Origin: Syntrophorhabdaceae bacterium | Lineage (GTDB): Bacteria; Desulfobacterota; Syntrophorhabdia; Syntrophorhabdales; Syntrophorhabdaceae | NCBI GenBank assembly: GCA_963665295.1 | Contig: OY762209.1 | Coordinates: forward strand, 160,001-224,000 | Direction: 5' to 3' | Length of the DNA: 64,000 nt | Part shown: positions 9,855 to 27,540 of the stretch, piece after piece | Layout of the letters: the number at the start of each line of letters is the position of its first letter | Numbering within the stretch: the stretch's first letter is position 1 | Notes under the pieces: generated by a model | The model's database searches: none | What the model was told of the DNA's origin: nothing | Seen by the model: only the letters and a program-made list of their open reading frames with translations | Made by a program: the position numbers and the translations under genes

Positions 9855-12068
9855 ATGGGGAATCATCTATTGAGGGGAAGTCTTATTCTTATGTTCGCGA
9901 TGTTCTTAATGAATGGAGCCGGTCCCGGCCTTTGCGCCGAAGGGGGCGGGGGAAATGATCCGGGAAAGCAGAGTCCGAAGGCGGCAGCGAAACTGAAGGC
10001 GGGAGAGACCGCAAAGGCCGGGACCGAAGCGCGGGATCCCAACGTCTTCACCCTCGGCGTGATCGAGGTCAAGGACAGCAGGGAAGTCAACAGGTTCGTG
10101 ACGAGCGACAAAGTGAGTGACGAGGAGATGAGGGAGTTCAGTACAAACAGGTTGCCCGACGCCTTGAACCTGCTCCCCGGAGTGACCATGAGCCAGATAG
10201 GACAGAGAAATGAAAGGACCATCTACGTGCGTGGCTTCAACACGGCGCGGGTGCCCGTGTTTATGGACGGCATTCCCGTATATATGCCTTACGACAGAAC
10301 CTTCGATTTCAACCGGTTCAGCACCTTCGACCTGTCGGAAATCATAGTAACCAAGGGGTTCACGTCGGTCCTTTATGGCCCCAATACCATGGGCGGCGCC
10401 ATAAACATGGTCTCCCGGAAGCCCGTGAAGGCCTTCGAAGGTAACGCGGGGGCGCAATACGGGTCGGGCAACAGCTATTTCGGGTACGCGAACCTGGGCA
10501 GCAAACACCGGAACTGGTACCTCCAGGGGGGCGTCTCCTACATGGCCCAGACCTATTTCCCCGTGTCCGGTGATTTTAACGCCACCAAAAATCAAACCGG
10601 CCTCGGCCGCACCCATTCCGATTCCCAGGATTCGAGGATAAGCCTAAAACTGGGCCTCACCCCCTGGGACGGCCACGAGTATGTCCTTGGATGGATAAAG
10701 CAGGAGGGCAGCAAAGGGGGACCGCCGGACGCGAGGGTGTCGTCCACCACCAACAACAACTACATCTCCACCCAGCGGTGGCTGTGGCCCAGATGGGACA
10801 AGGACAGCTATTTTCTGACGACCCACACGCCCATCGGTGAAAAAAACTACGCCAAGACAAGACTCTATTACGACAAGTTCACCAACTGGCTCGACTATTT
10901 CACTCCCAACAACAACGCCTATGCCCAGTACTACAACTCATTCGGCCAGAGAAGTTACTATGACGACTACACCATAGGCGGAGCCCTCGAGATGGGCACC
11001 AAACTCATTCCCTGGAATGATATCAAGGCGTCCTTCCACTACAAGCGGGACAGCCACAGTGAAAAGAACGCGATCAACAACATATATACGAACAAGAAGC
11101 CGGTCTACGTCGGGATGCCATGGGTGCCGGACGACGACGTCACCACGTCCGTGGGGCTCCAGGACACGATCGACTTCACAAAAAAGTTCTACGCCATCGC
11201 GGGAATCAGCTACGACCGACTGGATGCGCTGCGCGCCAAAAAGTGGGTCAACACCTATAACGCCACCGGCACCACGGGATACGTGGGGTGGCAATCTTTT
11301 AACACCGACGCCGTCAGCAAGGTAAGTCCTCAGTTGGGTCTCTTCTACCGGACTTCCGAAACGGGCATAATCCATGCCACGGCCGAGCAGAAGATGAGGT
11401 TCCCCACCATGAAGGAGCGGTACAGCTGGAGCTTTGGGAAGTCGATCGATAACCCGGCCCTCAAGCCGGAAACGTCGGTAAACTACGAACTGGGATACGA
11501 GGAACTTTTCCTCAAGAAAAAGATACGCTTCAAAACCGCGGTCTTCCGCAACGACATAGCCGACGCCATCCAGCAGGTTATCACCACCAACCCCTACTAT
11601 GGGCAGACCGGGTGGACCAACCCTACGGTCAACCAGAATCAGAACGTCGGGCGGGTGCAGCAGTATGGCCTTGAACTCCAGAGTGACGTAGCGATCACGG
11701 ATAACCTGGACGGCGGGCTTAATTACACCTATCTCAACAGGGAAAGTCTGAAGACTTCAGGGGCCTACGTGAGGCTCACCGATGTGCCGGCCCACAAGGT
11801 ATTCACCTACATGAAATACAAGACGCCCCTGCGCGGCATGAGCGTGCTCGGCAGCTTTGAATACGGTTCCAACCGAAGCAACGACACCTCCGGCATATAC
11901 AACACGGGTCCCGCGGCCATCGCCAACGCGAAGGTCATGTATGAGGTCATCAAGGACCTCATCGTGGAGGGCGGCGTGAACAATCTCCTCGACCGCAATT
12001 ATCAATACTCGACCGGGTTTCCGGAGCCGGGAAGGACCCTGTTCGCGGGTGTGCGGTGCAGGTTCTAG
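9855..12068 (+). CDS. TonB-dependent outer membrane receptor
   Basis: Signal peptide, plug (LPGV..IYVRGF..DGIP, SVLYGPNTMGGAINMV), NPALKPE, NLLDRNY..PGRT, terminal Phe. Confidence 0.95.
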   Translation: MGNHLLRGSLILMFAMFLMNGAGPGLCAEGGGGNDPGKQSPKAAAKLKAGETAKAGTEARDPNVFTLGVIEVKDSREVNRFVTSDKVSDEEMREFSTNRLPDALNLLPGVTMSQIGQRNERTIYVRGFNTARVPVFMDGIPVYMPYDRTFDFNRFSTFDLSEIIVTKGFTSVLYGPNTMGGAINMVSRKPVKAFEGNAGAQYGSGNSYFGYANLGSKHRNWYLQGGVSYMAQTYFPVSGDFNATKNQTGLGRTHSDSQDSRISLKLGLTPWDGHEYVLGWIKQEGSKGGPPDARVSSTTNNNYISTQRWLWPRWDKDSYFLTTHTPIGEKNYAKTRLYYDKFTNWLDYFTPNNNAYAQYYNSFGQRSYYDDYTIGGALEMGTKLIPWNDIKASFHYKRDSHSEKNAINNIYTNKKPVYVGMPWVPDDDVTTSVGLQDTIDFTKKFYAIAGISYDRLDALRAKKWVNTYNATGTTGYVGWQSFNTDAVSKVSPQLGLFYRTSETGIIHATAEQKMRFPTMKERYSWSFGKSIDNPALKPETSVNYELGYEELFLKKKIRFKTAVFRNDIADAIQQVITTNPYYGQTGWTNPTVNQNQNVGRVQQYGLELQSDVAITDNLDGGLNYTYLNRESLKTSGAYVRLTDVPAHKVFTYMKYKTPLRGMSVLGSFEYGSNRSNDTSGIYNTGPAAIANAKVMYEVIKDLIVEGGVNNLLDRNYQYSTGFPEPGRTLFAGVRCRF

Positions 12069-12078
12069 GCAGGACAGA

Positions 12079-12903
12079 GTGATACTCAACGAAACAACCG
12101 ACATAGTCAGGCGCATCTACCGCGGAGGACTCGCCAACATAACCGTCGAAAGACTGGTGGTGGGCGTTTTCTTCGCGGGCGTGAGACTGTCGAATGGATG
12201 TGGGGGCATATCCTACACCCCCACATCCGAGATACACCGGCGGCATCGCACCGCCTGTCCGCGTCAGGAAGCGACGCCTCCCCGTCTCAAAGGGACGCCC
12301 GTTTCCCACGTCCTCAACTCCGCAGATGACAGTCCCCTCTTCAGCACGGTGAAGATCGCCGTGCTGAACGCCCTGTCGGAACCCCTCATTTCCCGAGGCA
12401 GGTACAAGTGGATCGACGACCGCGACGCCCTTGACATGATAGAGCCCGAATCCATGGGTGCAGTCGGCATGGTCGGCGCTTTCGGCCCCTTCCTCGCGAG
12501 GTTCAGGGAGACGGACGTCCATGACATTCGCGTCATTGAAATGCGAAAAGACAACCTCAGTAATGAAGACAAGAAGTTGTATGTCCCTTCCCGTCACGCC
12601 GGAAGGGTGCTCCCCCATTGCGATACGGTGATAATCACCGGAGCTTCCATCGCCAACGGCACCATAGACCGCCTCCTGGACTTCGTGAGGCCCGGGGCTA
12701 CGGTTGTCGTAGTGGGGCCCACGGCAAGTTTCCTGCCCGACGCCCTCTTCGACAGGCATGTCAACGTGGTATGCGGCGTCAGGGTCACGAACCCGGACAA
12801 AGCGATCGACATGATTTCGGAAGGGCTTGCCGCGTACCACCTCTTTCACGACTGTATGAGGAAGGTCAGTCTTCTCAGACCGGACAAGGAGCAAATGCCA
12901 TGA
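12079..12903 (+). CDS. DUF364 (Rossmann-like, putative heavy-metal chelation) protein
   Basis: AVLNALS, VGMVGAF, ITGASIANGTI, VGPTAS; GTG 12079 just after the receptor stop. Confidence 0.85.
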   Translation: MILNETTDIVRRIYRGGLANITVERLVVGVFFAGVRLSNGCGGISYTPTSEIHRRHRTACPRQEATPPRLKGTPVSHVLNSADDSPLFSTVKIAVLNALSEPLISRGRYKWIDDRDALDMIEPESMGAVGMVGAFGPFLARFRETDVHDIRVIEMRKDNLSNEDKKLYVPSRHAGRVLPHCDTVIITGASIANGTIDRLLDFVRPGATVVVVGPTASFLPDALFDRHVNVVCGVRVTNPDKAIDMISEGLAAYHLFHDCMRKVSLLRPDKEQMP

Positions 12904-13769
12904 ACGCCATCCGTGGACCCGTTTTCACCTCTCGCATGAAAGAGGTCATGGTTTCCGTGTTGATCCACGGAGCCCTCATATCCCTCGTCCTCGCCCTCGC
13001 AGGCCACTACGCCCATCGCCCCTCCGACCTCACCACGATCCTCCTTAACATGGACAGCGTAAAACCCCGTCCCTCGGACAGGCCGGGAGGCGACGGGAGG
13101 AAAGCCGGCTCCGAAGGCACGGATAAAAAGGCCGCGAAGGGCGTACCCAAAACAGCGTTGAGCCGGACCCCGAGCCCGGTCAAAAACCAGACGCCTCCGG
13201 CCCAGGATTCAGGAAAAGGTGTCACCCCACGGGAGAACCACCTCCACGCAAGTAGTCCGGCGGACACCTCGACGGCAACGAACCTGCCGGGGGCTACCTC
13301 TCTTGCGGCCGACAGCGGCGAATACCACGGATTAGCGGGCAACGGAGAAGGTCTTGGCGGAGGAGGCGGCAAAGGACTCGGCGCTTACGGCGCGGGCTCA
13401 GGGTTCGGGGGGACCGGCCGGGGCGGCATGGGCGGAGGCCGCGGTGAGGGCAGGGGCAGCGGCAGTCCGAAGCAGGCGGACGTTGACCTCTATCTCAAAG
13501 AGCATTACGCCTACATCCGCGACCTGATCATGAGGCATCTCGTCTATCCGCCGAAGGCGAAGAAGATGGGATGGGAAGGCAAGGTGACGGTGGCCTTTAC
13601 CATTTCGGAAACGGGCATGGCAAGCGCACTTCGGGTGGTGGCGGGTTCCGGCCATCAGATCCTCGATGAGAACGTGATGGATACCATTAAGGAGGTGCAG
13701 CCTTTTCCCAGACCCCCTGCGCCTGCTCCCCTTAAAATCCCCATCACCTACCGGCTCGACAACACATGA
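12900..13769 (+). CDS. tonB: Energy transducer TonB
   Basis: SVLIHG TM anchor; C-terminal YPPKAKKMGWEGKVTVAFTI...SGHQILD; ATGA overlap with DUF364 gene. Confidence 0.9.
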   Translation: MNAIRGPVFTSRMKEVMVSVLIHGALISLVLALAGHYAHRPSDLTTILLNMDSVKPRPSDRPGGDGRKAGSEGTDKKAAKGVPKTALSRTPSPVKNQTPPAQDSGKGVTPRENHLHASSPADTSTATNLPGATSLAADSGEYHGLAGNGEGLGGGGGKGLGAYGAGSGFGGTGRGGMGGGRGEGRGSGSPKQADVDLYLKEHYAYIRDLIMRHLVYPPKAKKMGWEGKVTVAFTISETGMASALRVVAGSGHQILDENVMDTIKEVQPFPRPPAPAPLKIPITYRLDNT

Positions 13770-13808
13770 CACCATGGATTACCAAATCAGCGTACAGGGA
13801 GGCAACAC

Positions 13809-14405
13809 ATGAGCGAAGACCATTTTGATCTGCAAAGACTTTTGAACGAAGCAAAGGAGTTCCACGGAGATCTCTGCGCGGGGATTACCCTCGGGACGAG
13901 GATGTCCATACTCGGGCTCAAGGCGATCGGGATAGAGGACCCGAAAGGAAAGGACCGCAAGAACCTCGTTGTTTACGTGGAGACCGACAGGTGTGCGAGC
14001 GACGCAATCCTGGCGGTAACGGGCTGCCACCCCGGTAAGAGGAGCATGAAGATACTTGACTTCGGCAAAATGGCGGCCACCTTCATAAACCTTCAAACGG
14101 GCAAGGCGGTAAGGGTGGTGGTCAAAGACAAGGATGGAGGAAAAGAGTACACCCCGGAGATGGTGGAAAAGGAACCTCACACCGAGGCCTATGCCATGGC
14201 TCCCGCCGAGGACCTCTTCGAGGTGGCCGAAGTAGAGGTAGACCTGAAACCGGAGGATATGCCGGGAAAACCGCTCAGGATTGTCACCTGCGCGTCCTGC
14301 GGGGAGCGGGTCATGGATATGAGGGAAGTGAGAAAAGGCGGGGAATCCTTTTGCAGGCCCTGCGCGGAGAATAAATTCTACTATAGAGTCAAGAACAGGG
14401 CATGA
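13809..14405 (+). CDS. FmdE-family protein with C-terminal Zn finger
   Basis: FHGDLCAG, ETDRCASDA, GKMAATF, CASCGE...CRPC. Confidence 0.88.
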   Translation: MSEDHFDLQRLLNEAKEFHGDLCAGITLGTRMSILGLKAIGIEDPKGKDRKNLVVYVETDRCASDAILAVTGCHPGKRSMKILDFGKMAATFINLQTGKAVRVVVKDKDGGKEYTPEMVEKEPHTEAYAMAPAEDLFEVAEVEVDLKPEDMPGKPLRIVTCASCGERVMDMREVRKGGESFCRPCAENKFYYRVKNRA

Positions 14406-15271
14406 AGAGGGGGGCAAAGGCGATGCACGGATGCGAAGCGATGAACACGGATGTGGCAGGGATAGACTGGAGCGAAGCATGGAAGGAAGCAAAGGCGAAG
14501 AGAACCGTCGGCACCAGAGACAACAAGTTTTGGGACAGGAGGGCTCCGTCGTTTTCGAAACACGCGTCGCAGACGGTCTATCCGGAAGCCTTCCTCAATA
14601 TCATGAACCCCGAGCCTCACTGGACCATTCTTGATATGGCATGCGGAGGAGGCACCCTCGCCATACCCCTTGCGGCAAAGGTGGGTGAGGTGACGGCAGT
14701 TGACTTTTCAGAGAGGATGCTCGATATGGTCACGCAAAAATGCCGCGATGAAAACATTACGAACGTGAAAACCATCAACGGGAGTTGGGAAGATGATTGG
14801 CCCACCCGCGGCATCGGGACGTACGACGTGTCCATTGCCTCCCGGTCTCTTGTGGTGGATGATCTCCGGGCTGCCATCCTCAAGTTGGACGGGGCTGCCC
14901 GGGAGCGTGTCTATATTTCGACCATAGTGGGCGACGGCCCCTACGACCGGCGTATGTTCGACGCCCTGGGCAGGCCCCTCTACATGGGGCCTGACTACAT
15001 CTATAACTACAACCTCCTCTACCAGATGGGCATCCACGCCAGGTTGACCTTCATCGAAGAGACTGCTAACGGGACTTTCGAGAGCCTCGAGGACGCCCTC
15101 AACTCCGTCCATTGGATGCTGGACCACATGACCCCCGAGGAGGAGGAGACCCTCACCCATTATCTCGCAAAACATCTCACACCAACTAACGGCGCCTGGA
15201 AACTGGACTACGACAGGACCATCCGGTGGGCGGTTATGTGGTGGGACAAGAAGACAGGGGGCGCGCGGTGA
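14402..15271 (+). CDS. Class I SAM-dependent methyltransferase
   Basis: ILDMACGGGTL, AVDFSERML. Confidence 0.9.
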   Translation: MKRGAKAMHGCEAMNTDVAGIDWSEAWKEAKAKRTVGTRDNKFWDRRAPSFSKHASQTVYPEAFLNIMNPEPHWTILDMACGGGTLAIPLAAKVGEVTAVDFSERMLDMVTQKCRDENITNVKTINGSWEDDWPTRGIGTYDVSIASRSLVVDDLRAAILKLDGAARERVYISTIVGDGPYDRRMFDALGRPLYMGPDYIYNYNLLYQMGIHARLTFIEETANGTFESLEDALNSVHWMLDHMTPEEEETLTHYLAKHLTPTNGAWKLDYDRTIRWAVMWWDKKTGGAR

Positions 15272-16350
15272 GGCGGCGTATCGCCATGCCCCCAGGAAAA
15301 AGGCCGATTGTCGCCACGCGCGGCGCGGGCCTTACAGCCCTGGTCGCCCTTCTCTTCATCGTCCTCTTCATGACTACGGTTCACGCGAGAGAGATCGTGG
15401 ATATGAGGGGACGGAAGGTTACTATTCCCGATAAGATTACACGGGTATATTCGAGCTCCCCTCCCGTGACGTTCATGATCGCCGCAGTTGACCCCACGCT
15501 CCTCGTGGGGCTCAACTTCGCCCTTACGGAAGGATCGAAACCGTATATGCCCCAGTCAATGCGCACGTTGCCCGTGCTGGGCGGATTTTACGGAAGAGGA
15601 CAGACTGCCAATATCGAGATGATATTGAAAGCGAAGCCCGACGTGATCATCACGGGCGGATTCAAAAACACGCCCATGAATGACAAATATGAGGAGTCCA
15701 TCAAGGGCCTCGGTATTCCCGTCGTCTACACGACATTCGAAACACTTCCCGAGTATTCGGACGCCTTTCTGTTTCTCGGAAAGGTCCTGAAACGGGAGGA
15801 GCGGGCAAAGACGCTTGCCCGGTACGGAAGAGATACCCTTCGGGACATCAGGACCCGGGTGAACGCCATTCCCTCCAACAGGAGACCCACAGTCTACTAC
15901 GCGGAGGACATGGACGGCCTTGCTACGGAATGTACCGGCTCCCCCCACGCGGAGCTTATCGAACTGGCGGGAGCCAGGAATGTGGCCCGTTGCACGCCCA
16001 GGGACCAGATGGGCATGGAGACCATAAGTCTGGAAAAGGTCATATATTACGACCCGGAGGTCATCATAGTGAAGGAACGGACGTTCTATGACAAGATATT
16101 TACCGACCCCGGCTGGAAACGGATAAAGGCGGTGAAGACGAAACGGGTCTATCTCATACCCTCCCTACCCTTCAACTGGTTCGACCGTCCTCCTTCCTTC
16201 ATGCGCTATATGGGAATTCAGTGGCTTATGGGTTGTCTCTATCCCGGCGAATACCGCAAGGACACGGTGAAGGAGGCTCAAAGCTTCTACCGGCTCTTTC
16301 TGGGGGTCAATCCCACCGATGCCCGGATGCGCGCGGTGATTACCCCATGA
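15268..16350 (+). CDS. ABC substrate-binding protein, FecB/BtuF (metal-chelate) class
   Basis: DMRGRKVTIP, NIEMILKAKPDVI, AVKTKRVY, PFNWFDRPPS; start assumed at the GTGA overlap. Confidence 0.9.
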   Translation: MRRRIAMPPGKRPIVATRGAGLTALVALLFIVLFMTTVHAREIVDMRGRKVTIPDKITRVYSSSPPVTFMIAAVDPTLLVGLNFALTEGSKPYMPQSMRTLPVLGGFYGRGQTANIEMILKAKPDVIITGGFKNTPMNDKYEESIKGLGIPVVYTTFETLPEYSDAFLFLGKVLKREERAKTLARYGRDTLRDIRTRVNAIPSNRRPTVYYAEDMDGLATECTGSPHAELIELAGARNVARCTPRDQMGMETISLEKVIYYDPEVIIVKERTFYDKIFTDPGWKRIKAVKTKRVYLIPSLPFNWFDRPPSFMRYMGIQWLMGCLYPGEYRKDTVKEAQSFYRLFLGVNPTDARMRAVITP

Positions 16351-17360
16351 AGCGCTTCGGTCTTTTTCCTCTCCTCGCGGGACTCCTCGCGCTGACCGCC
16401 GTCTCGTCTCTCGCCCTCGGCAGATATCCCCTTCCCGTGGGCGATGTGGTGGGCCTGCTCCTTTCCAAGGGACTCCACTGGGGTCAGACGAACCCGGCAA
16501 TGAGCGGGATGTTCGAGAATCTTGTCATGGATATCCGCATGCCGAGGATTCTCGCCGCCCTCCTCATCGGGGCTTCGCTCTCGGTTTCGGGCGCATCCTT
16601 TCAGGCCATGTTTCTCAATCCCCTCGTCTCTCCCGGGCTCCTGGGCGTCCTGGCCGGGGCTGCTTTCGGCGCTGCCTTGGGCATGGTCCTTTCCAAGAGT
16701 TGGATCGTGGTTCAGGGCATGTCCCTCGCCTTCGGCTTTGTCGCAGTCATCCTGTCCCTCGGCATCGCGAAGGTGCACAAGGGCAATACCCTGCTCCTCC
16801 TCGTTCTCGGCGGGGTGATCAGCACCGCTCTCTTCACATCTCTCCTGTCCGTCATCAAGTATGTGGCCGACCCTTACAACCAGTTGCCGGAAATCGTGCG
16901 CTGGCTCATGGGCGGGCTCTCTTTCGTGGACAGGAAAGTACTCTATGCCACGGCCATACCGCAAGCCCTCGCCATATGTGCCATCGCCCTCCTCTCAGGG
17001 TATCTGAACGCCCTTTCCATGGGCGACGAGGAGGCAAGGTCCCTGGGCGTACCCGTGAAATGGATACGTATCCTCCTTATCTTCCTTGCCACCTTCATAA
17101 GCAGCATGACCGTGGTCCTTGCGGGCATGATCCTCTGGGTGGGCCTCATCATCCCCCATATCACGCGCATGCTCGTGGGACCCGACAACAGGGTGCTCAT
17201 ACCCGCGAGCGCCTTGATCGGCGCCATCTACCTTATCGTGGTCGACGACCTGTCGCGCATGGCCTTCAGCGTGGAAATACCCATCGGCATCAGCACGTCC
17301 CTTGTGGGCATAACCTTCTTTGCAGTGATATTGAGAAAAGCGAGGAGAGGATGGAATTGA
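16347..17360 (+). CDS. FecCD/BtuC-family ABC permease
   Basis: IRMPRI, NPLVSPGLLGV, GDEEARSLG, VGLIIPH. Confidence 0.92.
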   Translation: MKRFGLFPLLAGLLALTAVSSLALGRYPLPVGDVVGLLLSKGLHWGQTNPAMSGMFENLVMDIRMPRILAALLIGASLSVSGASFQAMFLNPLVSPGLLGVLAGAAFGAALGMVLSKSWIVVQGMSLAFGFVAVILSLGIAKVHKGNTLLLLVLGGVISTALFTSLLSVIKYVADPYNQLPEIVRWLMGGLSFVDRKVLYATAIPQALAICAIALLSGYLNALSMGDEEARSLGVPVKWIRILLIFLATFISSMTVVLAGMILWVGLIIPHITRMLVGPDNRVLIPASALIGAIYLIVVDDLSRMAFSVEIPIGISTSLVGITFFAVILRKARRGWN

Positions 17361-18196
17361 TACCCCGCATCAGAGTGGAAAACGTGCTTTTCGGGTATAC
17401 GGAGAAACCTGTACTGAAAGAGGTAAGCCTCGACATTTTTCCGGGAGAAATCGTCATCCTCCTTGGCCCGAACGGCAGCGGCAAGAGTACGCTCCTGAAG
17501 AGCATGGTGGGCCTTCTCCGTCCGAAGGAGGGAACTGTTTCCCTGAACGGGAAGAACGTCGCCCACATAGGCTCCAAGGCCCTCGCCCGTGAAATCGCCT
17601 ATGTGCCCCAGATCCACAAAAATTCCTTCCCTTACCAGGTGATCGACGTGGTGCTCATGGGCAGAATCCCCCATAAACCCTTCTTCTTCAGGTACACCAG
17701 GGAAGATATCCGCATCGCGGAAAAGGTACTTCAAAGACTCTCCATCGAGCATCTCGCCGCCAGATCATACACGGACATCAGCGGTGGAGAGCGGCAGCTC
17801 ACCCTTATTGCGCGGGCCCTTACTCAGGAGGCAAGGACGTTCATTATGGATGAACCGGCAACGGGTCTCGATTACGGAAATCAGCTAAGGCTTCTCGAAC
17901 AGATAGTCGCCCTCTCCAAAGAGGGGTACACCTTCGTCACGTCAACCCATGCCCCGGAGCACGCGCTCTGGATCGCAGACCGGGTGATCATGATAAAGGG
18001 GGGCTCAATTCTCGCGGACGGAGACGCCGATGAGGTGGTGAACAGCCGGAATCTCGATCGCCTCTACAAGACAAAGGTGGACGTAGTAAACGTGAACGAC
18101 TCCTTCAGGGTGTGCATCCCCGGGGCTCTTCAAGGCGGTCCTTTGAAGAATGAGCCGGGCGTGGACGGTAGAGAGGCGGTGGGGAGTAATCAATGA
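17351..18196 (+). CDS. ABC ATP-binding protein, FecE/BtuD class
   Basis: GPNGSGKST, ISGGERQ, MDEP. Confidence 0.93.
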   Translation: MELIPRIRVENVLFGYTEKPVLKEVSLDIFPGEIVILLGPNGSGKSTLLKSMVGLLRPKEGTVSLNGKNVAHIGSKALAREIAYVPQIHKNSFPYQVIDVVLMGRIPHKPFFFRYTREDIRIAEKVLQRLSIEHLAARSYTDISGGERQLTLIARALTQEARTFIMDEPATGLDYGNQLRLLEQIVALSKEGYTFVTSTHAPEHALWIADRVIMIKGGSILADGDADEVVNSRNLDRLYKTKVDVVNVNDSFRVCIPGALQGGPLKNEPGVDGREAVGSNQ

Positions 18197-18243
18197 AGCG
18201 TGAAGAGCAATGCCGCTATGTCGGCGATAGACGATAGAAGGAG

Positions 18244-20004: not shown

Positions 20005-20019
20005 TGGAGGCCGGGTACC

Positions 20020-21417
20020 GTGTCCCTCCAAAGGCGCCTTAACCTCTTTGACGCCACGTTGCTCGTAGTGGGCAACGTGGCGGGGGCAGGCATCTTTACC
20101 ACCTCCGGTTTCCTCGCCCGGGAACTCCCCCACCCGTGGCTTTTTGTCGGCATATGGGTTATCGGCGGGGTTCTCACCCTTTGCGGGGCCCTTACTTATG
20201 CGGAGATGTCGGGCATGTTCCCCCGTTCCGGAGGCGACTACCTCTTCCTGAAAGAGTCCTACGGGTCGTGGGCAGGCTTTCTCCTGGGCTGGGTCTCATT
20301 CTGGATAATCAATCCCGGCTCCATCGCCGTCCTCTCCATTTCCATCGTGAAGTACCTGACCGGATTTTTCCCCTTCACGGGGGGGTCCGTGGAAAAGCTT
20401 CTCGCCGTGGGCATAATCGGGCTCTTCTCCCTTCTTCATTGCCAGGGGGTCAGACCGACGGGGACGGCCCAGAACTTCTGGACCCTGGCCGGTCTCACCC
20501 TCCTCCTGGTCTTTATCGTGGGCGGGTTCACATCCCCGAAAGGCAACTGGGGACACTTTGCCGCTGACGGCCCTATCCCTCTGTCTCCGGCAAAGGACTT
20601 CGGGCCTGCCATGATAGCCGTGATCTTCGCCTACAGCGGCTGGTTCGTAAGCGCCTACGTGGGAGACGAGATAAAGCGGCCCGAACGAAACCTTCCCCTG
20701 TCTTTTCTCCTGGGGACCCTCATCGTCATGGTTCTTTACGTACTCGTCAACGTGGTCTATGTCTACGCCATGCCGGTCCGGGAACTGGAAGGCGTTATCG
20801 ACGCGGGACAGGCGGCGGCAAAGCGCCTTCTCAGCCCCGCGGCCGCCCATGTAGTGAGCGGCGCCGTAGTCCTCGTCATAGCGGCGAGCATCAACGCAAC
20901 CATGCTCGCCGGCGCCCGCCTCTCCTATGCCATGGCTCGGGACGAACTCCTCTGGTCGCCCCTGAGGATTCTCCATCCGGTAAAGGGGACTCCCCACGTG
21001 GCCATTGTGGCCCAGGCGGGAATCGCATCGCTCTTTGTCATAGCCGGGACCTTTGAAGGCCTGCTGAGTTCCGTGGTCTTCGTCATGCTCCTCTCCTCCA
21101 TCGGATCCGGAGCGGCTCACATGCTCCTCCGGCGGCGCTCACCCCTTGCGCCAAGGCCCTATCGAACCTGGGGGTATCCCTGGGTCCCCCTCGTTTTCAC
21201 CCTTTCCTACATGTGGATCGCGGGGAGCATCGTCATTTCCAACCCGGCAAGATCGCTTCTCGGTCTTCTCGTTACCGCGTCGGGCATTCCCTTCTACCTC
21301 TATGCGGTCCGCCGGAGAGGGTACAAGGGGGAAACCCTTTCCTGCATAAAGACGAAGGCGAACAGGCCTGTCCGCGAAGGACTCCGGGAGGTCGATCACA
21401 TCGAGAGAATCTCCTGA
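20020..21417 (+). CDS. APC-family amino acid permease
   Basis: GAGIF, YAEMSGMFPRSGGDY, FAYSGW, RPYRTWGYP; polytopic. Confidence 0.92.
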   Translation: MSLQRRLNLFDATLLVVGNVAGAGIFTTSGFLARELPHPWLFVGIWVIGGVLTLCGALTYAEMSGMFPRSGGDYLFLKESYGSWAGFLLGWVSFWIINPGSIAVLSISIVKYLTGFFPFTGGSVEKLLAVGIIGLFSLLHCQGVRPTGTAQNFWTLAGLTLLLVFIVGGFTSPKGNWGHFAADGPIPLSPAKDFGPAMIAVIFAYSGWFVSAYVGDEIKRPERNLPLSFLLGTLIVMVLYVLVNVVYVYAMPVRELEGVIDAGQAAAKRLLSPAAAHVVSGAVVLVIAASINATMLAGARLSYAMARDELLWSPLRILHPVKGTPHVAIVAQAGIASLFVIAGTFEGLLSSVVFVMLLSSIGSGAAHMLLRRRSPLAPRPYRTWGYPWVPLVFTLSYMWIAGSIVISNPARSLLGLLVTASGIPFYLYAVRRRGYKGETLSCIKTKANRPVREGLREVDHIERIS

Positions 21418-21512
21418 TCCGTGGGGACCCACGGACCGGGGGGACGACAGACATAGACACGGCGAAATCGCCTGTCGGCTGCAAACCAAAATCCAACGAG
21501 GAGGAGTACCGC

Positions 21513-21722
21513 ATGAAGATCAGTGCACGTAACATGTTAAAGGGAAAAGTCAAAAGCATCAACCCCGGAGCGGTCAACACGGAGGTGGTCATAGAGTTGG
21601 CAGGCGGCGCTGAAGTCGTCTCCATCATCACCAAGGCCTCGGCGGAGGCCCTCGGGCTCGCGGACGGCAAGGAAGTGTACGCAGTCGTCAAAGCCTCGAA
21701 CGTAATGGTTGCGGTGGATTAG
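21513..21722 (+). CDS. mop: Molybdate-binding TOBE protein (Mop/molbindin)
   Basis: MKISARNMLKGKV...SIIT...L...VKASNV; RBS GAGGAG. Confidence 0.92.
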   Translation: MKISARNMLKGKVKSINPGAVNTEVVIELAGGAEVVSIITKASAEALGLADGKEVYAVVKASNVMVAVD

Positions 21723-21728
21723 GTTTTC

Positions 21729-21765
21729 CCCTACGTGGCCGTCGGCTTCCGGCGGCCGCGTAGGG
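21729..21765 (+). other. Strong intercistronic stem-loop between mop and modA
   Basis: CCCTACGTGGCCGTCGG-ctt-CCGGCGGCCGCGTAGGG with G:U pairs and no T tail. Confidence 0.55.
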
Positions 21766-21811
21766 CGGGCCTGATAAAAATGTGGTTATCAACGATACTA
21801 GGGAGGGAAAG

Positions 21812-22564
21812 ATGAGTAAATTTTTGTGTCGCCTGTTTTGCTCTTTGCTTATGGTCATATTGTTCGCGTGCGGCGCCATGGCTGCCGAGGTACGCCTCGC
21901 GGTGGCCGCGAGTCTCAGAGAGGTAGTGGTCCAGCTTTCGGACGCCTTTGCGAAGAAGAATCCCGGCGTAACCTTTCAGAGCAGCTTCGGCGCCTCGGGC
22001 GCACTGGCCCGGCAGATCGAGAACGGTGCCCCGTGCGATGTCTTCTTCTCCGCCAACGTAGAGTGGGTGGATTACCTGAAGGGGAAGAAACTGGTCGATC
22101 CGCGCCATGTCTCCATCTTCGCCTACAATGAGCTTGTCTTCGTGGGCAGGCCGGACCTCAAGGCGACGGGCCTCAAAGACCTGCCGGGCCTCGACAAGAT
22201 CGCCATGGGCAGTCCGAAGAGTGTCCCCGCCGGACAGTACGCCGAGGAGGCCGTGAGGAAAGCCGGTCTCACGAAGCAACTGGAAAAGAAGCTCGTCATG
22301 GCGCGGGATGTGCGGGAATGCCTCATGTACGCGGAAAGAGGTGAAGTGGACGGCTCCTTTGTGTACAAGACCGATGCGGAGCAGATGGCAAAGAACGTCA
22401 AAATCCTTTTTGTCGTGCCGCAGGACCTCTATCCCAGGGTAACCTATCCCATGGCCCTCACCGTAACGGGAAGCAGGAAGCCTGAAGCCGAGGCGTTTTA
22501 TCGGTTCCTCCAGTCGGCTGAAGCGAAGACGACCCTCGCCGGGCGTGGCTTCATCATAAAATAG
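21812..22564 (+). CDS. modA: Molybdate ABC substrate-binding protein
   Basis: AASL, GASGALARQIENGAP, SAN, VPAGQYA, VYKTDA. Confidence 0.95.
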   Translation: MSKFLCRLFCSLLMVILFACGAMAAEVRLAVAASLREVVVQLSDAFAKKNPGVTFQSSFGASGALARQIENGAPCDVFFSANVEWVDYLKGKKLVDPRHVSIFAYNELVFVGRPDLKATGLKDLPGLDKIAMGSPKSVPAGQYAEEAVRKAGLTKQLEKKLVMARDVRECLMYAERGEVDGSFVYKTDAEQMAKNVKILFVVPQDLYPRVTYPMALTVTGSRKPEAEAFYRFLQSAEAKTTLAGRGFIIK

Positions 22565-22577
22565 GCTGAATTCGGGT

Positions 22578-23264
22578 ATGCTCGCCTTTACCCCGGCCGA
22601 TTATTCGGCGGTCCTCCTGTCCCTCAAGATCGCGGTGACCGCCACCCTGATCTCACTGCCTTTCGGCTTTGCCGTGGCCTATCTCATGACATACGGCCGG
22701 TTCAGGGGAAAAGTGGCACTCGACGTATTCGTCAATCTTCCCCTCACCTTGCCGCCCGTGGTAATCGGCTACCTCCTGCTCCTCCTTCTCGGTAAGAGGG
22801 GATGGCTCGGCAGAACGCTCCTTCAGCCCCTGGGCGTCAACCTTATCTTCACGTGGAAGGCAGCGGTCATGGCCACGGCGGTCGTGGGCTTCCCCCTCAT
22901 GGTGAGGTCCATCCGTACCGGCATGGAAACCATAGACGAGCGCCTTATCCAGGCGTCCCGCACCCTTGGCGCCGGGTGGTTCGATACCATCCTCACGGTG
23001 ATCGTGCCCCTTTCGGTGCGCGGGCTCATCGCGGGCTCGGTCCTCATGTTCGCCCGGGGCCTCGGGGAATTCGGGGCCACTATCATCGTGGCGGGCAACA
23101 TTCCCGGCGTGACCCAGACGATCCCCCTGGCCATCTATGAATATGTAAGCTCGCCCCGGGGAGACGTGATGGCCCTCGCCCTCTGTCTCGTATCCATCTC
23201 CATCTCCGTAGCGGTCCTCGTGTTCCACGAGTGGCTCGGCAGGCGCATAGTAAGGACGGACTGA
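22578..23264 (+). CDS. modB: Molybdate ABC permease
   Basis: LPLTLPPVVIG, FARGLGEFGAT, NIPGVTQTIP. Confidence 0.95.
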   Translation: MLAFTPADYSAVLLSLKIAVTATLISLPFGFAVAYLMTYGRFRGKVALDVFVNLPLTLPPVVIGYLLLLLLGKRGWLGRTLLQPLGVNLIFTWKAAVMATAVVGFPLMVRSIRTGMETIDERLIQASRTLGAGWFDTILTVIVPLSVRGLIAGSVLMFARGLGEFGATIIVAGNIPGVTQTIPLAIYEYVSSPRGDVMALALCLVSISISVAVLVFHEWLGRRIVRTD

Positions 23265-23265
23265 C

Positions 23266-24321
23266 ATGGAATTGACCGTAACCCTGCAAAAGGTCTTCGG
23301 CACCTTTTCCCTTGACGTCGATTTCGTTGTCCGGGGCGAACGTATCGGTATTTTCGGTCCTTCGGGAAGCGGCAAATCGACGCTGGTGAGCCTCATTGCG
23401 GGGCTCAATCATCCGGACCGCGGCCGTATCCTCCTTGACGGAGAGCCTGTCTTCGACAAAGCGGCACGGATCGATATCCCCACGGACCTGAGGCGGATCG
23501 GCATGGTCTTCCAACGTCCTCACCTTTTCCCCCACCTGAGTGTCAGGGGAAATCTCCTTTATGGCTTCAAGCGCTCGAATCGTGCCCATCGCAAGATTAC
23601 ACTGAATGACCTCGTGGAGGTCCTCCAGATAGGCCATCTCCTGGACCGGGGGGTGAAGAACCTTTCCGGCGGCGAGAAACAACGGGTGGCAATCGGTAGG
23701 GCCGTCCTTTCGAACCCGCGCCTCCTTCTCATGGACGAGCCCCTGTCGGCCCTGGACGACACGCTCAAGTTCCAGATTATCCCCTTCCTCACCCACACCT
23801 GCGAGGCCTTCCATATCCCTTATCTCTTCATCTCTCACTCCTTGACCGAAATGAGGATCATGGCGGACCGGGTGCTTCTCATGGACGGGGGCCGCATGGC
23901 AGGACAGATGGGCGCTGAAGAGCTGGCCCGCGCTTCGGCGGGGGAACGCACCCGGCCTTACACGAACCTTCTCCGCCTGAGAGCGCCGCGCCGTGTCGAT
24001 GGCCTCCATGCATATAAGTGGGGGGACCGGGAACTTCTCATTTCAGGAGGCGACGACAATCCCGAAGCTCTCTTCGAGCTTCCCTCCACGGATATCATTA
24101 TCTTCAAACGTCACCCGGAGGCCATCAGCGCGCGAAACCTCCTCAAATGCCGCGTCGCCGGCACCTTCGAAACAAACGGCAGAATTGCCCTGGAACTGGA
24201 ATGCGGGACAGAGCACCTCGTAGCCCTCGTGGTAAAGGAGGCAGTCCGGGAACTTGCCATCACAAAAGGCATCAAGGTCTATGCCGCCATAAAGGCCACG
24301 GCCTTTCGACAACTGGGCTGA
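23266..24321 (+). CDS. modC: Molybdate ABC ATPase with C-terminal TOBE
   Basis: GPSGSGKST, LFPHLSV, LSGGEKQR, ISARN...IKA. Confidence 0.95.
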   Translation: MELTVTLQKVFGTFSLDVDFVVRGERIGIFGPSGSGKSTLVSLIAGLNHPDRGRILLDGEPVFDKAARIDIPTDLRRIGMVFQRPHLFPHLSVRGNLLYGFKRSNRAHRKITLNDLVEVLQIGHLLDRGVKNLSGGEKQRVAIGRAVLSNPRLLLMDEPLSALDDTLKFQIIPFLTHTCEAFHIPYLFISHSLTEMRIMADRVLLMDGGRMAGQMGAEELARASAGERTRPYTNLLRLRAPRRVDGLHAYKWGDRELLISGGDDNPEALFELPSTDIIIFKRHPEAISARNLLKCRVAGTFETNGRIALELECGTEHLVALVVKEAVRELAITKGIKVYAAIKATAFRQLG

Positions 24322-24349: not shown

Positions 24350-24359
24350 CAGAAAATGC

Positions 24360-24425
24360 TTGACGTTTCGTTATGGCTGATGTTATATAACGAATGCAGA
24401 TCGCTATATACCGGATAATATAACC
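24360..24425 (+). promoter_or_regulatory. Promoter of exbBD-radical SAM unit with two tandem ModE-type boxes
   Basis: TTGACG 24360; CGTTATGGC-N6-TATATAACG (24369-24392) and CGCTATATA-N6-AATATAACC (24402-24425). Confidence 0.75.
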
Positions 24426-24460
24426 ATGCACGTCTTTTATACGGGTCCGGTTGAGGGAGG

Positions 24461-24901
24461 TTGGTTATGGAATGGCTTCATAGCGCCATCGATTACGGCG
24501 TCATCGGGGTGCTCATCATAATGAGCATATTGGCAGTTTCCGTTGCAATAGAAAGGAAGCTTTTCTACCGGAAGATTCGGATTTCCGCGTTTCACGACAA
24601 GAAGGAACTCGAACTGGAGCTCATGCGGAGGTTGCACGTCATCTCCACCGTGGGGAGTAATGCGCCTTATATCGGGCTTCTCGGGACGGTCCTCGGCATC
24701 ATGCTTACCTTCTCGACCATCGGGACCAGGGGGCTTGTGGACACGGGCCATATCATGTCGGGCCTCGCCCTGGCTCTCAAAGCAACGGCCGTGGGTCTCC
24801 TGGTGGCCATACCATCGATTGTATTGTACAACTTCCTCCTCAAGTCGGCGAGGGAGTTGATCCTGCAGTGGGAGATAGAGCATGGAAGAAAAGGGCTTTG
24901 A
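24461..24901 (+). CDS. exbB: ExbB (short form)
   Basis: SNAPYIGLLGTVLGIM, LALKATAVGLLVAIP. Confidence 0.92.
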   Translation: MVMEWLHSAIDYGVIGVLIIMSILAVSVAIERKLFYRKIRISAFHDKKELELELMRRLHVISTVGSNAPYIGLLGTVLGIMLTFSTIGTRGLVDTGHIMSGLALALKATAVGLLVAIPSIVLYNFLLKSARELILQWEIEHGRKGL

Positions 24902-25262
24902 CTACATGAACGTCGTTCCCCTTGTCGATGTCATGATGGTCCTTCTCGCCATCGTGCTCATGACGTCCACCTTTGTGGCAAGCGGTGCCATCCCCGTGCA
25001 ATTACCTAAGGCGGCGGATAAGCAAAACGCGGCCCTCAAGGCCGCCACAATAACGATCGACAAGAAGGGGGCGGTCTACTTCGAAGCCGCTCCCGTTACC
25101 CTCCGGGGCCTTCAGGAGAGACTCGCCGTATTGGGGCCGGACACCCCTGTCCAGGTAAGGGCGGACCGTTCCATCGCTCTTCAGGAATGCGTGGATGTCC
25201 TCGACCTCCTTTCCGCCAACGGCTTCAAAAAGGTCAGCCTCCAGACGGAACGGAGCTCCTGA
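24882..25262 (+). CDS. exbD: ExbD
   Basis: MNVVPLVDVMMVLL, VQLPKA, RAD. Confidence 0.92.
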   Translation: MEEKGFDYMNVVPLVDVMMVLLAIVLMTSTFVASGAIPVQLPKAADKQNAALKAATITIDKKGAVYFEAAPVTLRGLQERLAVLGPDTPVQVRADRSIALQECVDVLDLLSANGFKKVSLQTERSS

Positions 25263-25396
25263 TATGGGCAAGGCTCGCCACCTTCGCCGGAAGGAATTAC
25301 CTTATTATTGTTATCCCTGTGGGCGAACAGGTGTGGAGGGCGCCGATTCAGCCGGCCGGCCCCTATGACGACGACTGAGAAGGAGGAAACATATTC

Positions 25397-26404
25397 ATGC
25401 GTTGTAATTATTGTGAATGGCGGTGTGAGTTGGGCGGAGGGAAGCTCGGCGTGTGCCGCATGTACCACGAACAGGACGGGGCGGTAACGGAGCGTTTCCC
25501 CTCCCAGTGGTGTTCCTACGGCACGTCGAGAATAGAGTCCGTCCCTTTCTACCACGTATATCCCGGAAGCAGGACCATGATCCTCGGCACCAGCAGTTGT
25601 AACTTCAAATGCAAGTACTGCTCCAATGCCTTCATCGCCAAAGCGGACCCCGCTTCGGTCCAGGACAGGATGTTCGACCTCACGCCCCGCGAGATCGTCG
25701 CCATGGCGCGAAAACTCCGGTGCCACAACATAGTCTTCAACATCAACGAACCCACGGTCTCCCTGCCTACCCTCCTTGAGGTGGCGCGGGAGGCGCGGGA
25801 GGCGGGAATCCCCATGGGCTGTTTGACCAACGCATACACCACGGAAGAATCGACGGACATCCTCGAATCCATCTTCTCCTTCTTCAATATCGGACTCAAG
25901 GGCCTTTCCACGGATTTCAACCGTGACTATATCGGCATCCCCTCTTCCGCCCCCATATTGCGCAACATCGCGAGGCTCGCCCGGACGCGCCATGTCGAGG
26001 TGACCACGCCTGTAATCCAGTCCGTGAACGATCACGAGTTGGACGAAATCGCCGACTTCCTCTCGGGCATAGACCGGCAGATCCCCTGGCACGTTTTTCG
26101 CCTCCTTCCCGAAGACGAGATGAAGGACGCGGGATACCCGAACATCGAGGTGATAAACCAAGCCCTTACTCTGGCGAGAACGAAACTCCCCTCTCTCTAT
26201 TTCCATAATTTCGTGGGCTCCGACTGGGTAAACACCCTGTGTCAGGGATGCGGGGCAGTCGTCATCGAGCGTTTCAGCCTCGGATGCGGGGGCGACAAAC
26301 TCCACCGGTTCCTGTGCGAAGGGAATCGTTGCCCCCAATGCGGCCGGGAAGTGAAGCTCCTCGGCACCAGGACGGAATGGACAAGAGAGGAGGCGGCCAT
26401 ATGA
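25397..26404 (+). CDS. Radical SAM protein (AmmeMemoRadiSam/PFL-activase-like)
   Basis: N-terminal CNYCEWRC..GVC, CNFKCKYCSN, NEPT, C-terminal CQGCG and CPQCG. Confidence 0.88.
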   Translation: MRCNYCEWRCELGGGKLGVCRMYHEQDGAVTERFPSQWCSYGTSRIESVPFYHVYPGSRTMILGTSSCNFKCKYCSNAFIAKADPASVQDRMFDLTPREIVAMARKLRCHNIVFNINEPTVSLPTLLEVAREAREAGIPMGCLTNAYTTEESTDILESIFSFFNIGLKGLSTDFNRDYIGIPSSAPILRNIARLARTRHVEVTTPVIQSVNDHELDEIADFLSGIDRQIPWHVFRLLPEDEMKDAGYPNIEVINQALTLARTKLPSLYFHNFVGSDWVNTLCQGCGAVVIERFSLGCGGDKLHRFLCEGNRCPQCGREVKLLGTRTEWTREEAAI

Positions 26405-27540
26405 GTCTCGCCATTATTGACGCAAGGGAATGGCAGAAAACATTCGATCTCAGGACCGGTGAAAAGAGGGAGGCCCAAGGCCCCGTGGTCGACATGGTGC
26501 GGGACGTGTTACGGAGGCACCCCTACCCGGGCGACATGGAGGCAGGGGCAAACCGATGGGTCACCGACACCGCCCTGGATCTGATCGGGAAATACCGTCC
26601 CCAATTCGCCTTCCTCATCTATGCCTGGCAGTATTTCGTCAGCCGCTACTCACCCATGAGCGTTGAGGAACGGGCCGATATGGTTTCCATTGTATTTCAG
26701 GAGGTGAACCGTTTCCTCAGCCTCTCCGGGTTTGACTACGTGCTCGTGGGCACCGGGGACATGACGCCTCTCAACGGCTTTATCGACTTGAGCAGGCTCG
26801 ACGGCCTCGCGGTCTCCTCCCACTGGTCCGCCCGGTACGCCGGTCTCTTCAGCCCGAGCGCCTCCGACCTCGCCCATCTCGAAGCCCATCCCCACGTGGA
26901 ACGGGTCGTTGAAAGGGACGAGTTCATGGACCTGTTCAACGGCTCCTCTCAAGACGCGGCGCGGACGCCGGAATATCTCATACTGGCGAAGGAGGGTTAC
27001 ACCTTCAAAAGCGCGGGAGTAACCATGCGAAGGGCTGTCATGATCCCCGCGGCGAGCTTCCTCATCCCCGTATCGACCACCCTGGCGACCGTCCACTCCG
27101 TCACCGGCATAAGGCCGCTTATCGAGGGGCGGCTCAAGGAGCGTAAGATCGCTCTCATCATGGTGGAAGGTATCGGCACCGAGGGATTTCTCCTGCCCTC
27201 AACCCCCTGCGAAAACGGAAAGGGATGGTTCTATTACGAACCGGGAGACGGCCAGTGCCTCACCGCCGCCGCCGGAGAACACCGGGTCTTCGACTACCCC
27301 ACGGGTTACAAATACTTCGACGAGGACGGGCCTGAAAAGGAGTACCCCTTTTCAGGATATTTCAGTTCCATCCCGGAAGGCACGGTGGGCAGGGCTTTTC
27401 CGGAGCGGAGCATCGCGGTAGGCAACAAGAGCATGTTCATGCACATGGTGGCAGGGGCGGACCTCTCCGTCGAGTGCTTCGCAAGGAACCTCTACAACCA
27501 GGGCACCATGGCGGTCATCCACCGTGAGGACAAGCCTTAA
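26401..27540 (+). CDS. Hypothetical protein, possibly alkaline-phosphatase/phosphodiesterase-like fold
   Basis: ATGA-coupled to the radical SAM gene; weak resemblance (DTALDLIGKYRPQFAFL, VLVGTGDM, ILAKEGY) only. Confidence 0.6.
   Translation: MSLAIIDAREWQKTFDLRTGEKREAQGPVVDMVRDVLRRHPYPGDMEAGANRWVTDTALDLIGKYRPQFAFLIYAWQYFVSRYSPMSVEERADMVSIVFQEVNRFLSLSGFDYVLVGTGDMTPLNGFIDLSRLDGLAVSSHWSARYAGLFSPSASDLAHLEAHPHVERVVERDEFMDLFNGSSQDAARTPEYLILAKEGYTFKSAGVTMRRAVMIPAASFLIPVSTTLATVHSVTGIRPLIEGRLKERKIALIMVEGIGTEGFLLPSTPCENGKGWFYYEPGDGQCLTAAAGEHRVFDYPTGYKYFDEDGPEKEYPFSGYFSSIPEGTVGRAFPERSIAVGNKSMFMHMVAGADLSVECFARNLYNQGTMAVIHREDKP

Follow-up and report, generated by a model that had tools for sequence, protein, structure and literature searches.

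The 64,000-nucleotide stretch of DNA analysed here (the window) spans positions 160,001 to 224,000 of contig OY762209.1 from a Syntrophorhabdaceae bacterium (assembly GCA_963665295.1) and contains, at 9855-27540, an island of 18 genes that probably serves the acquisition of molybdenum or tungsten (Mo/W). All 18 lie on the plus strand, and they include a TonB-dependent outer-membrane receptor, two ATP-binding cassette (ABC) importers and several enzymes that use S-adenosylmethionine (SAM). An initial annotation, made from the letters of the sequence, had listed these genes from the receptor through a radical SAM enzyme and its partner on one strand, and all 18 were found again in Pfam and NCBIfam scans of the window open reading frames (ORFs). 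Gene names were taken from these two databases and gene starts were adjusted using the translations, giving the following content (aa, amino acids):

9855-12068, plus strand: TonB-dependent outer-membrane receptor (Pfam Plug 74.6 bits, barrel 122 bits)
12049-12903, plus strand: DUF364 and DUF4213 protein (Pfam 138 and 46 bits)
~12897-13769, plus strand: TonB (TonB_C 61.6 bits; start from translation)
13809-14405, plus strand: FmdE-like protein with a C-terminal zinc finger (FmdE 108.6 bits, zf-dskA_traR 29.5 bits)
14402-15271, plus strand: class I SAM methyltransferase (Methyltransf_25 52 bits)
~15286-16350, plus strand: MolA-like periplasmic binding protein with signal peptide (Pfam Peripla_BP_2)
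~16347-17360, plus strand: FecCD-family permease (FecCD 251 bits)
~17351-18196, plus strand: ABC ATPase (ABC_tran 105 bits)
18244-20004, plus strand: secreted 586-aa fusion of a Sec-type signal, two sulfite-oxidase-fold repeats, CxxCH and TP_methylase
20020-21417, plus strand: LAT-type APC amino-acid exchanger (AA_permease_2 172 bits)
21513-21722, plus strand: 69-aa Mop (molbindin; TIGR00638 84.5 bits, cut-off 55)
21812-24321, plus strand: modA, modB and modC (TIGR01256 184 bits, cut-off 62.5; NF006939 264, cut-off 262; TIGR02142 385, cut-off 285)
24467-24901, plus strand: exbB (TIGR02805 153 bits, cut-off 135)
24882-25262, plus strand: exbD (Pfam ExbD 95.5 bits)
25397-26404, plus strand: radical SAM enzyme (Radical_SAM 70.6 bits; TIGR04337 126 bits, under the cut-off of 220)
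26401-27540, plus strand: 379-aa partner overlapping the radical SAM gene (no family from Pfam or NCBIfam)

Neighbouring genes overlap or are separated by gaps of at most about 135 nucleotides (nt), except for 140 nt after modC that hold a GC-rich hairpin and a second operator region, and we read the island as two operons, 9855-24321 and 24461-27540. A consensus promoter and terminator scan returned 8 promoter-like matches against 7.7 expected and 27 terminator-like matches against 19.2, and lent these borders no support.

Both operons are preceded by ModE-type operators. The pattern CGNTAT-N12-ATANCG, with at most one mismatch allowed, matched the window seven times, against a mean of 0.72 and a maximum of 3 in 100 dinucleotide-preserving shuffles, none of which reached seven, and the boxes that the initial annotation had proposed are thereby borne out. 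Six matches are intergenic and fall at three spots (8012; 9548, 9673 and 9703; 24369 and 24402), while the seventh, at 14722 within the methyltransferase gene, probably arose by chance. Exact boxes number 13 in the whole genome, where about 4 would be expected from composition. The operator features and the candidate regulator are:

8012-8035: exact ModE-type palindrome, with no clear gene downstream and nearby ORFs without Pfam match
9548-9571: distal ModE-type box with one mismatch, upstream of the receptor operon
9664-9726, plus strand: promoter-operator P1, with TTGACA at 9664-9669, 3 nt, a box at 9673-9696 (TATATA in its 3' half), 6 nt, and an exact box at 9703-9726
24360-24425, plus strand: promoter-operator P2, with TTGACG at 24360-24365, 3 nt, an exact box at 24369-24392 (containing TATATA), 9 nt, and a box at 24402-24425
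37682-38020, plus strand: 112-aa regulator consisting of a ModE DNA-binding domain alone (TIGR00637 73.9 bits, cut-off 98.5), the single such gene in the genome

P1, before the receptor gene, and P2, before exbB, are thus built alike (TTGAC followed by A or G, 3 nt, a 24-nt box, 6 or 9 nt, and a second box, the promoter hexamers having been identified by eye), and paired boxes over TATATA are the arrangement expected of a repressor. The box agrees with the consensus for E. coli-type ModE sites that PMC545781 lists for Geobacter. Near the 8012 palindrome are an ORF at 7532-7777, encoding a small secreted protein rich in Lys and Ala, and, on the minus strand at 8588-9334, a GntR/FCD regulator gene oriented divergently to the receptor operon.

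Exact boxes outside the window, in the same genome, precede a second mod-like ABC set, a receptor paralog 65% identical to the island receptor, and a paralogous methyltransferase together with a binding protein (45%) and a permease (73%). Another exact box, at G000:C1:1121790 (locus L002), has downstream of it the gene for a 522-aa protein that combines an RNA-polymerase-alpha-CTD domain with sigma-70 region 4, and after that the gene for a 296-aa protein paralogous (42% identity) to the island methyltransferase. Mop matches in the genome are confined to the 69-aa island protein and the tail of ModC. Because the sole ModE-like gene encodes a DNA-binding domain only and the sole stand-alone Mop sits in the island, we infer that the two proteins probably form a split ModE, in which the 112-aa protein binds DNA and the 69-aa Mop acts as sensor.

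We then followed the cluster in other genomes by its binding protein. In a sample of 400 other genomes of the phylum, 15 encode an ortholog (E<=1e-40), and the neighbourhoods of these genes total 252 kb. A TonB-dependent receptor adjoins the binding protein gene at no fewer than 11 of the 15 loci, FmdE is present at 7 and DUF364 at 6, and the same class I methyltransferase lies directly upstream of the binding protein at 8, with another class I type in that position at two more. ModE-type boxes were found at 6 loci, the 15 neighbourhoods together holding 5 exact boxes against about 0.6 expected at this genome's rate, and 15 against about 6 when one mismatch is allowed; modABC adjoins at two (L065 and L073, with 57-77% identity in L073). 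An operon from family f19 (L069) reads box, methyltransferase, 616-aa radical SAM protein, receptor, binding protein, permease, ATPase. Homologous clusters are therefore linked to ModE boxes or to mod or tup genes; the initial annotation had counted the lack of a link to mod genes or ModE boxes among the grounds that would refute its proposal, and this attempt at refutation fails. Since paralogous clusters, and orthologous ones in other genomes, have the same boxes or adjoining mod or tup genes, the Mo/W link is well supported and the cluster can be regarded as part of a Mo/W-responsive regulon. The genome itself shows ample demand for these metals, with four AOR-type genes, nifH and 11 above-cut-off molybdopterin-oxidoreductase matches, two of them with an in-frame TGA. 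At one locus (L068, G255:C12) an operon of receptor, FmdE, DUF364 and importer genes has as neighbours the genes of a sigma-54 activator, of a phosphate-type porin and of the nitrogenase ADP-ribosyltransferase DRAT, a context that hints at co-ordination with nitrogen fixation.

The receptor has the plug and 22-strand barrel of a TonB-dependent transporter and is accompanied by TonB, ExbB and ExbD; its plug region aligns with CntO and FoxA, and it falls under every NCBIfam substrate-specific cut-off, as do the binding protein and the permease. The best of these sub-cut-off models are haem and siderophore receptors for the receptor and BtuC for the permease, and the TP_methylase domain of the secreted protein recalls corrin chemistry; another TP_methylase, at locus L089, is fused to DUF4198. 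An ordinary Fe-siderophore, haem, Ni/Co or corrinoid cluster that merely sits beside modABC, with boxes due to chance or belonging to another regulator, is nevertheless extremely unlikely. The box statistics, the identical operator layout at two promoters and the recurrence of boxes at paralogs and at orthologs in other families all argue against it, as do the adjacency of mod and tup genes, the TupA fusion described below and the wide margin by which all NCBIfam substrate-specific models miss their cut-offs. Searches with Rfam, which included the B12 and molybdenum cofactor (Moco) families, found no riboswitch of any family in the window or in 16 homologous loci, and Fur and NikR consensus scans gave no match in the window and one weak Fur-like match each in L070 and L010.

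Of the two importers, ModABC is assigned without difficulty, each of its three components scoring above its NCBIfam equivalog cut-off. The second combines a Peripla_BP_2 protein homologous to MolA with an adjoining FecCD permease and ATPase and is thus a putative importer of the MolBC-A type. The closest PDB relatives of the binding protein are 4pag (E 1.4e-77; deposited without a ligand name) and 4ovk, followed by MolA (3psa/3psh), to which it aligns over its full length (E 3.4e-20; residues 35-338 against 2-318 of the chain). MolBC-A is a type II (FecCD-class) importer whose cargo is free molybdate or tungstate (PMC4031551; bioRxiv 10.64898/2026.10.15.759412). This relationship alters one premise of the initial annotation, which had taken ABC systems of the FecB/BtuF class to import metal-ligand complexes: as MolBC-A moves the free oxyanion (PMC4031551), a chelated cargo cannot be deduced from the FecB class alone. 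What stands of that proposal is a TonB-dependent route beside ModABC within a Mo/W regulon, as indicated by the boxes and the conserved linkage; the MolA precedent removes the FecB class as grounds for a chelate, although the PruR-like fold described below and the SAM-using DUF364 family (PMC12930334) leave both a chelate and a pterin as candidate extracellular cargo.

The gene at 18244-20004 encodes a protein of unusual composition. In its predicted structure (predicted local distance difference test, pLDDT, 84.2; predicted template modelling score, pTM, 0.77; 20 sequences) residues 338-586 adopt a class III SAM methyltransferase fold (CbiF Z 20; Foldseek E ~1e-14). The methylase domain looks intact, and none of the 15 full-length homologs in an alignment has lost its GxGxGD, GDP or PGxS motif. 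Among the NCBIfam precorrin-methylase models cobM_cbiF scored highest (70 bits; cut-off 260), and no cobalamin or sirohaem equivalog cut-off was passed. Residues 28-337 form two degenerate sulfite-oxidase-fold repeats (internal BLAST E 8e-05); homologs of the protein exceed the Oxidored_molyb cut-off, the model of this N-terminal part resembles SorA (Z 16.2), SoxC (Z 16.1) and YedY (Z 12.2), and a PDB sequence search with its profile gave YedY as best match at E 0.019. The Mo-binding cysteine is absent, the YedY cysteine being aligned to a non-cysteine position. A CxxCH motif occupies residues 142-146 and recurs in the same place in 27 of 31 homologs of this exported protein, making covalent haem c likely. 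Most of the 31 N-termini appear signal-like by eye and, apart from one weak pattern match (L044), have no twin-arginine motif; a Sec-type rather than twin-arginine N-terminus argues against export with a preloaded cofactor. Placed behind the signal peptide, the methylase domain would reside in the periplasm, where we know of no SAM supply.

The protein belongs to a large group: at least 479 protein clusters match it at E<=1e-20, and the best 120 of these are near full length (549-607 aa), with both domains present in 119 of the 120 according to a precomputed Pfam list. Where these carry a name at all, it is only 'precorrin-4/-2 methylase', 'SAM-dependent methyltransferase', 'molybdopterin-dependent oxidoreductase' or YedYZ-subunit, and 'precorrin-4 methylase' is a mislabelling. 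TP_methylase domains also occur in a 520-aa protein where the domain is fused to DUF4198 (L089:2413-3975) and in a 596-aa protein where it follows a 350-aa N-terminal part without Pfam family and adjoins a methyltransferase and a DUF364 gene (L088:8648-10438); the domain may be a recurring module joined to different N-terminal domains.

The company kept by the secreted protein was compared across 30 homolog loci, two matches on ~2 kb contigs having been excluded. A TonB-dependent receptor lies in the neighbourhood at 21 of the 30. At L058 the gene order is modABC, fold protein, receptor, exbB, exbD, tonB; at L084 a pair of ModE boxes precedes the receptor, a 597-aa protein in which a TupA-like binding domain is fused to the fold repeats, a ModE-N regulator, and TupA-, TupB- and TupC-like genes, the TupA scores of 137 and 251 bits falling under the cut-off of 400. 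Through the fusion the fold is connected with binding proteins for oxyanions, which suggests that the receptor cargo ends as tungstate or molybdate in the periplasm. The sole inner-membrane carrier that accompanies the receptor and fold protein in L058 and L084 is ModABC or a TupABC-like system, and this too argues for the oxyanion as periplasmic product.

The same comparison revealed a close association with the APC exchanger. A LAT-type APC permease is encoded within 5 kb at 12 of the 16 loci that have the methylase-bearing form (15 fused, 1 split), and at none of the 14 loci of the form without the methylase domain. Among solved chains the island permease is closest to 6f2g (E 1.7e-50), a transporter of amino acids or polyamines from a bacterium, and to SLC7 light chains. 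The APC family also includes Sam3 of yeast, which transports SAM. That methylase and exchanger occur together may reflect a requirement in the periplasm for SAM or for an amino-acid-like co-substrate. On a specific version of this idea, the secreted protein would be a periplasmic, haem-c-bearing, SAM-dependent enzyme acting on the receptor cargo (a Mo/W-pterin, or reduced or thio Mo/W), and the APC permease a SAM/S-adenosylhomocysteine or amino-acid exchanger supplying periplasmic SAM. We consider this proposal improbable; if true, SAM-dependent chemistry would be seen for the first time in the periplasm of a bacterium, and Mo/W acquisition would include a step in which a cofactor or metal species is converted.

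The fold repeats also bear on whether the island salvages pterins. Repeat 2 of the model superimposes on the periplasmic pterin binder PruR in its pterin-bound structures (7rkb, Z 14.6, root-mean-square deviation 2.0 over 119 aligned residues; 7kp2, Z 14.4), and PruR too is Sec-secreted and has no Mo-binding cysteine (PMC11194511), so that the island protein shares the PruR combination of secretion, sulfite-oxidase fold and missing cysteine. If this likeness extended to function, the receptor would import molybdopterin, Moco, its tungsten counterpart (Wco) or a breakdown product, the repeats would bind it, and the type II importer or the APC permease would carry it inward, which would suit a system under Mo control. 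Type II ABC importers usually move cofactor-sized cargo. An invariant D-x-Y in repeat 2 may correspond to the Asn/Tyr/Trp triad that stacks on the pterin in PruR, but no sequence alignment to PruR was obtained and the stacking residues could not be mapped; a PDB sequence search with the repeat-2 profile retrieved no PruR chain, its best match being SorA at E 2.3. The PruR pocket is too short for Moco (PMC11194511), a common fold does not show function, and an oxyanion is indicated by the TupA fusion and by the operons whose sole carrier is modABC. Free Moco is, moreover, very labile. No DcpA-type GGDEF/EAL domain was found by Pfam among the 18 cluster proteins, the neighbour-locus maps, queried with window proteins alone, being blind to such domains. 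We give salvage of pterins or of the Mo/W cofactor only a slight chance.

The remaining enzymes of the island raise the question of a chelator. The DUF364/DUF4213 protein has PDB relatives 3npg and 3l5o. The sole characterised DUF364 enzyme, which is found together with radical SAM methylases, makes methylazetidine carboxylate from methyl-SAM (PMC12930334), and in M. maripaludis a DUF364 gene lies in the modABC operon, an operon cofit with nifH (bioRxiv 10.1101/2024.03.05.583561). FmdE is known from fusions to a molybdopterin-binding domain and has metal transporters as neighbours (PMC2954224). A second pair of DUF364 and FmdE genes (33% and 36% identical to those of the island) occurs at G000:C1:16884-18289 (L078), without a ModE box. 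The island radical SAM enzyme resembles the AmmeMemoRadiSam or activase types and aligns from end to end, at 30% identity, with the N-terminal half of the 616-aa radical SAM proteins found in ModE-boxed operons elsewhere. Its 379-aa partner was considered as the counterpart of the C-terminal half of those long proteins and rejected, there being no homology. The partner has no Pfam or NCBIfam match and no PDB sequence match even at E 10, and its structural model was unusable (pLDDT 37.8, 4 sequences); a language-model look-up placing it in the alkaline-phosphatase/phosphodiesterase superfamily is only a lead. Orthologs of the partner, 60-63% identical, adjoin the radical SAM gene in three genomes.

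These enzymes could together make a SAM-derived molybdophore, in that DUF364, the methyltransferase or methyltransferases and the radical SAM pair would build an amino-acid-like chelator, the APC permease would export it, the receptor and type II importer would retrieve its Mo/W complex, and FmdE would unload it. Such a scheme draws on the azetidine chemistry of DUF364 (PMC12930334), the M. maripaludis operon (bioRxiv 10.1101/2024.03.05.583561), the conservation of DUF364, methyltransferase and radical SAM enzymes alongside the importer, and the replacement of two of the three MolA oxyanion ligands in the binding protein. Azetidine/aminocarboxypropyl chemistry is also the route to nicotianamine-type chelators. 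The 18 proteins, however, include no non-ribosomal peptide synthetase, NIS, nicotianamine-synthase or opine-dehydrogenase family by Pfam and NCBIfam, and the APC permease follows the secreted methylase domain rather than biosynthetic genes. Operons of the L058 and L084 types pair the receptor with oxyanion ABC importers alone, and polar effects remained a possible cause of the DUF364 phenotype in the M. maripaludis study, as its authors acknowledge (bioRxiv 10.1101/2024.03.05.583561). We therefore regard a self-made molybdophore as unlikely, though deserving of attention.

Taken together, the gene content, operators, folds and conserved linkage lead us to favour, as the probable explanation, a Mo/W-starvation acquisition island made of two operons of like promoter-operator layout, with a TonB-energised receptor and two importers; the transport and chemical steps that follow are our reconstruction. 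With Mo/W plentiful, a ModE-type repressor would occupy the paired boxes over the -10 region and both operons would be shut, to be expressed when Mo/W became scarce. The dedicated TonB and ExbB/ExbD would then power the receptor, concentrating a Mo/W species in the periplasm, where the secreted sulfite-oxidase-fold/CxxCH protein would receive or convert it. The metal would end as an oxyanion and be handed to two binding proteins, ModA, feeding ModBC, and the MolA-like protein, feeding the MolBC-type type II importer. In the cytoplasm FmdE, DUF364, the methyltransferase and the radical SAM pair would handle the cargo or a small SAM-derived companion molecule, while Mop would buffer free molybdate. 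The least certain step is the nature of the cargo. We rank first a Mo/W species that is inorganic or bound in a weak complex, as opposed to a classical chelate of the siderophore type, second a self-made SAM-derived chelator, and third pterin or cofactor salvage.

Several observations weigh against this starvation-island explanation. The 112-aa regulator scores under the ModE cut-off and has no Mop domains, and is thus not a full-length ModE. Only the arginine of the MolA ligand residues K221, R264 and Y114 (bioRxiv 10.64898/2026.10.15.759412) is kept in the binding protein, which has S, R and F at these positions in an alignment to MolA; with one of the three named residues kept, simple MolA orthology is weakened and the pocket may take something other than bare oxyanion. 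Plain oxyanion uptake does not readily account for the conserved enzymes that use SAM (DUF364, class I methyltransferases of two kinds and radical SAM). The loci of the secreted protein, most of which gave no E. coli-type box, show no overall enrichment of such operators, with 14 boxes (at most one mismatch) in 378 kb against about 9 expected; clear box clusters occur in L041 and L084 alone, plus one exact box in L085. The compared genomes are kin, so the counts of conserved neighbours overstate independence, and Mo/W binding or transport by the receptor, binding protein and secreted protein is a proposal drawn from family membership.

The window holds further features on either side of the island. 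Two tandem copies of a ~58-bp unit (27643-27760) directly follow the last island gene, and past them come a small excisionase-like ORF (~27792-27930) and a low-GC stretch (47% at 28-30 kb) encoding an AAA ATPase and a subtilase, an arrangement that appears to mark where a mobile or defence element has been inserted. A 1029-aa WD40 and caspase (Peptidase_C14) protein is encoded at 2291-5380 on the minus strand, and STAND-NTPase and TPR proteins lie further along the window; these proteins are unrelated to the island.

Molybdate and tungstate are usually assumed to cross the outer membrane passively, and selectivity is credited to ModABC, TupABC or WtpABC. In anaerobes that possess many W/Mo enzymes and nitrogenase, a route under Mo control and energised by TonB would revise this picture for sulfidic, Mo-poor habitats, and would point to an uncharacterised way for anaerobes to scavenge scarce Mo or W. 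It would also give MolBC-type importers, FmdE and DUF364 a physiological setting and correct widespread 'iron/B12 transporter' and 'precorrin-4 methylase' annotations, while the secreted protein with its exchanger partner would provide a concrete, cloneable test case for periplasmic chemistry of an unknown kind. Neither a TonB-dependent receptor under ModE control nor such a secreted protein is described in the open-access papers and preprints that our searches covered, and they yielded no TonB-dependent Mo/W receptor in anaerobes either (PMC4674564 included).

Several parts of the island have recognisable counterparts among known systems. Like MolBC-A of Haemophilus influenzae (HI1470/71/72), its second importer combines a full-length-related Peripla_BP_2 protein with an adjoining FecCD permease and ATPase and coexists with ModABC; unlike MolBC-A, with which identity is about a quarter and one of three ligand residues is shared, the island adds a receptor, TonB, FmdE, a methyltransferase and DUF364. 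MolBC-A is molybdate-repressed in H. influenzae and is described as low-affinity (PMC4031551), whereas the island has the look of a starvation system. The equivalog modABC, consensus operators and Mop domain protein recall the E. coli-type ModABC/ModE/Mop system, from which the island differs in having the ModE DNA-binding domain alone, a separate Mop of 69 aa, and a regulon that takes in receptors and a type II importer; PMC545781 reports no E. coli-type sites in the delta-proteobacteria examined there that have a domain-only ModE, unlike the situation here. As in TonB-dependent uptake by CntO (pseudopaline) and OprC (ionic copper), an energised receptor with its own TonB and ExbBD would serve a scarce metal, but in contrast to the Cnt metallophore systems no nicotianamine-synthase-like or opine-dehydrogenase family was detected among the 18 proteins by Pfam. 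The secreted protein is PruR-like (7rkb, 7kp2) in being Sec-secreted with a degenerate sulfite-oxidase fold that has no Mo-binding cysteine, and unlike PruR in its two tandem repeats, conserved CxxCH, fused SAM methylase and partnership with receptors and transporters; the methylase domain shares the class III SAM methyltransferase fold of CbiF, CysG and CobA, yet scores under all precorrin-methylase equivalog cut-offs and sits behind a signal peptide. Our verdict is that the island is a real and coherent system, probably for Mo/W uptake, assembled from known kinds of metal-uptake component together with one of unusual make-up, the secreted protein.

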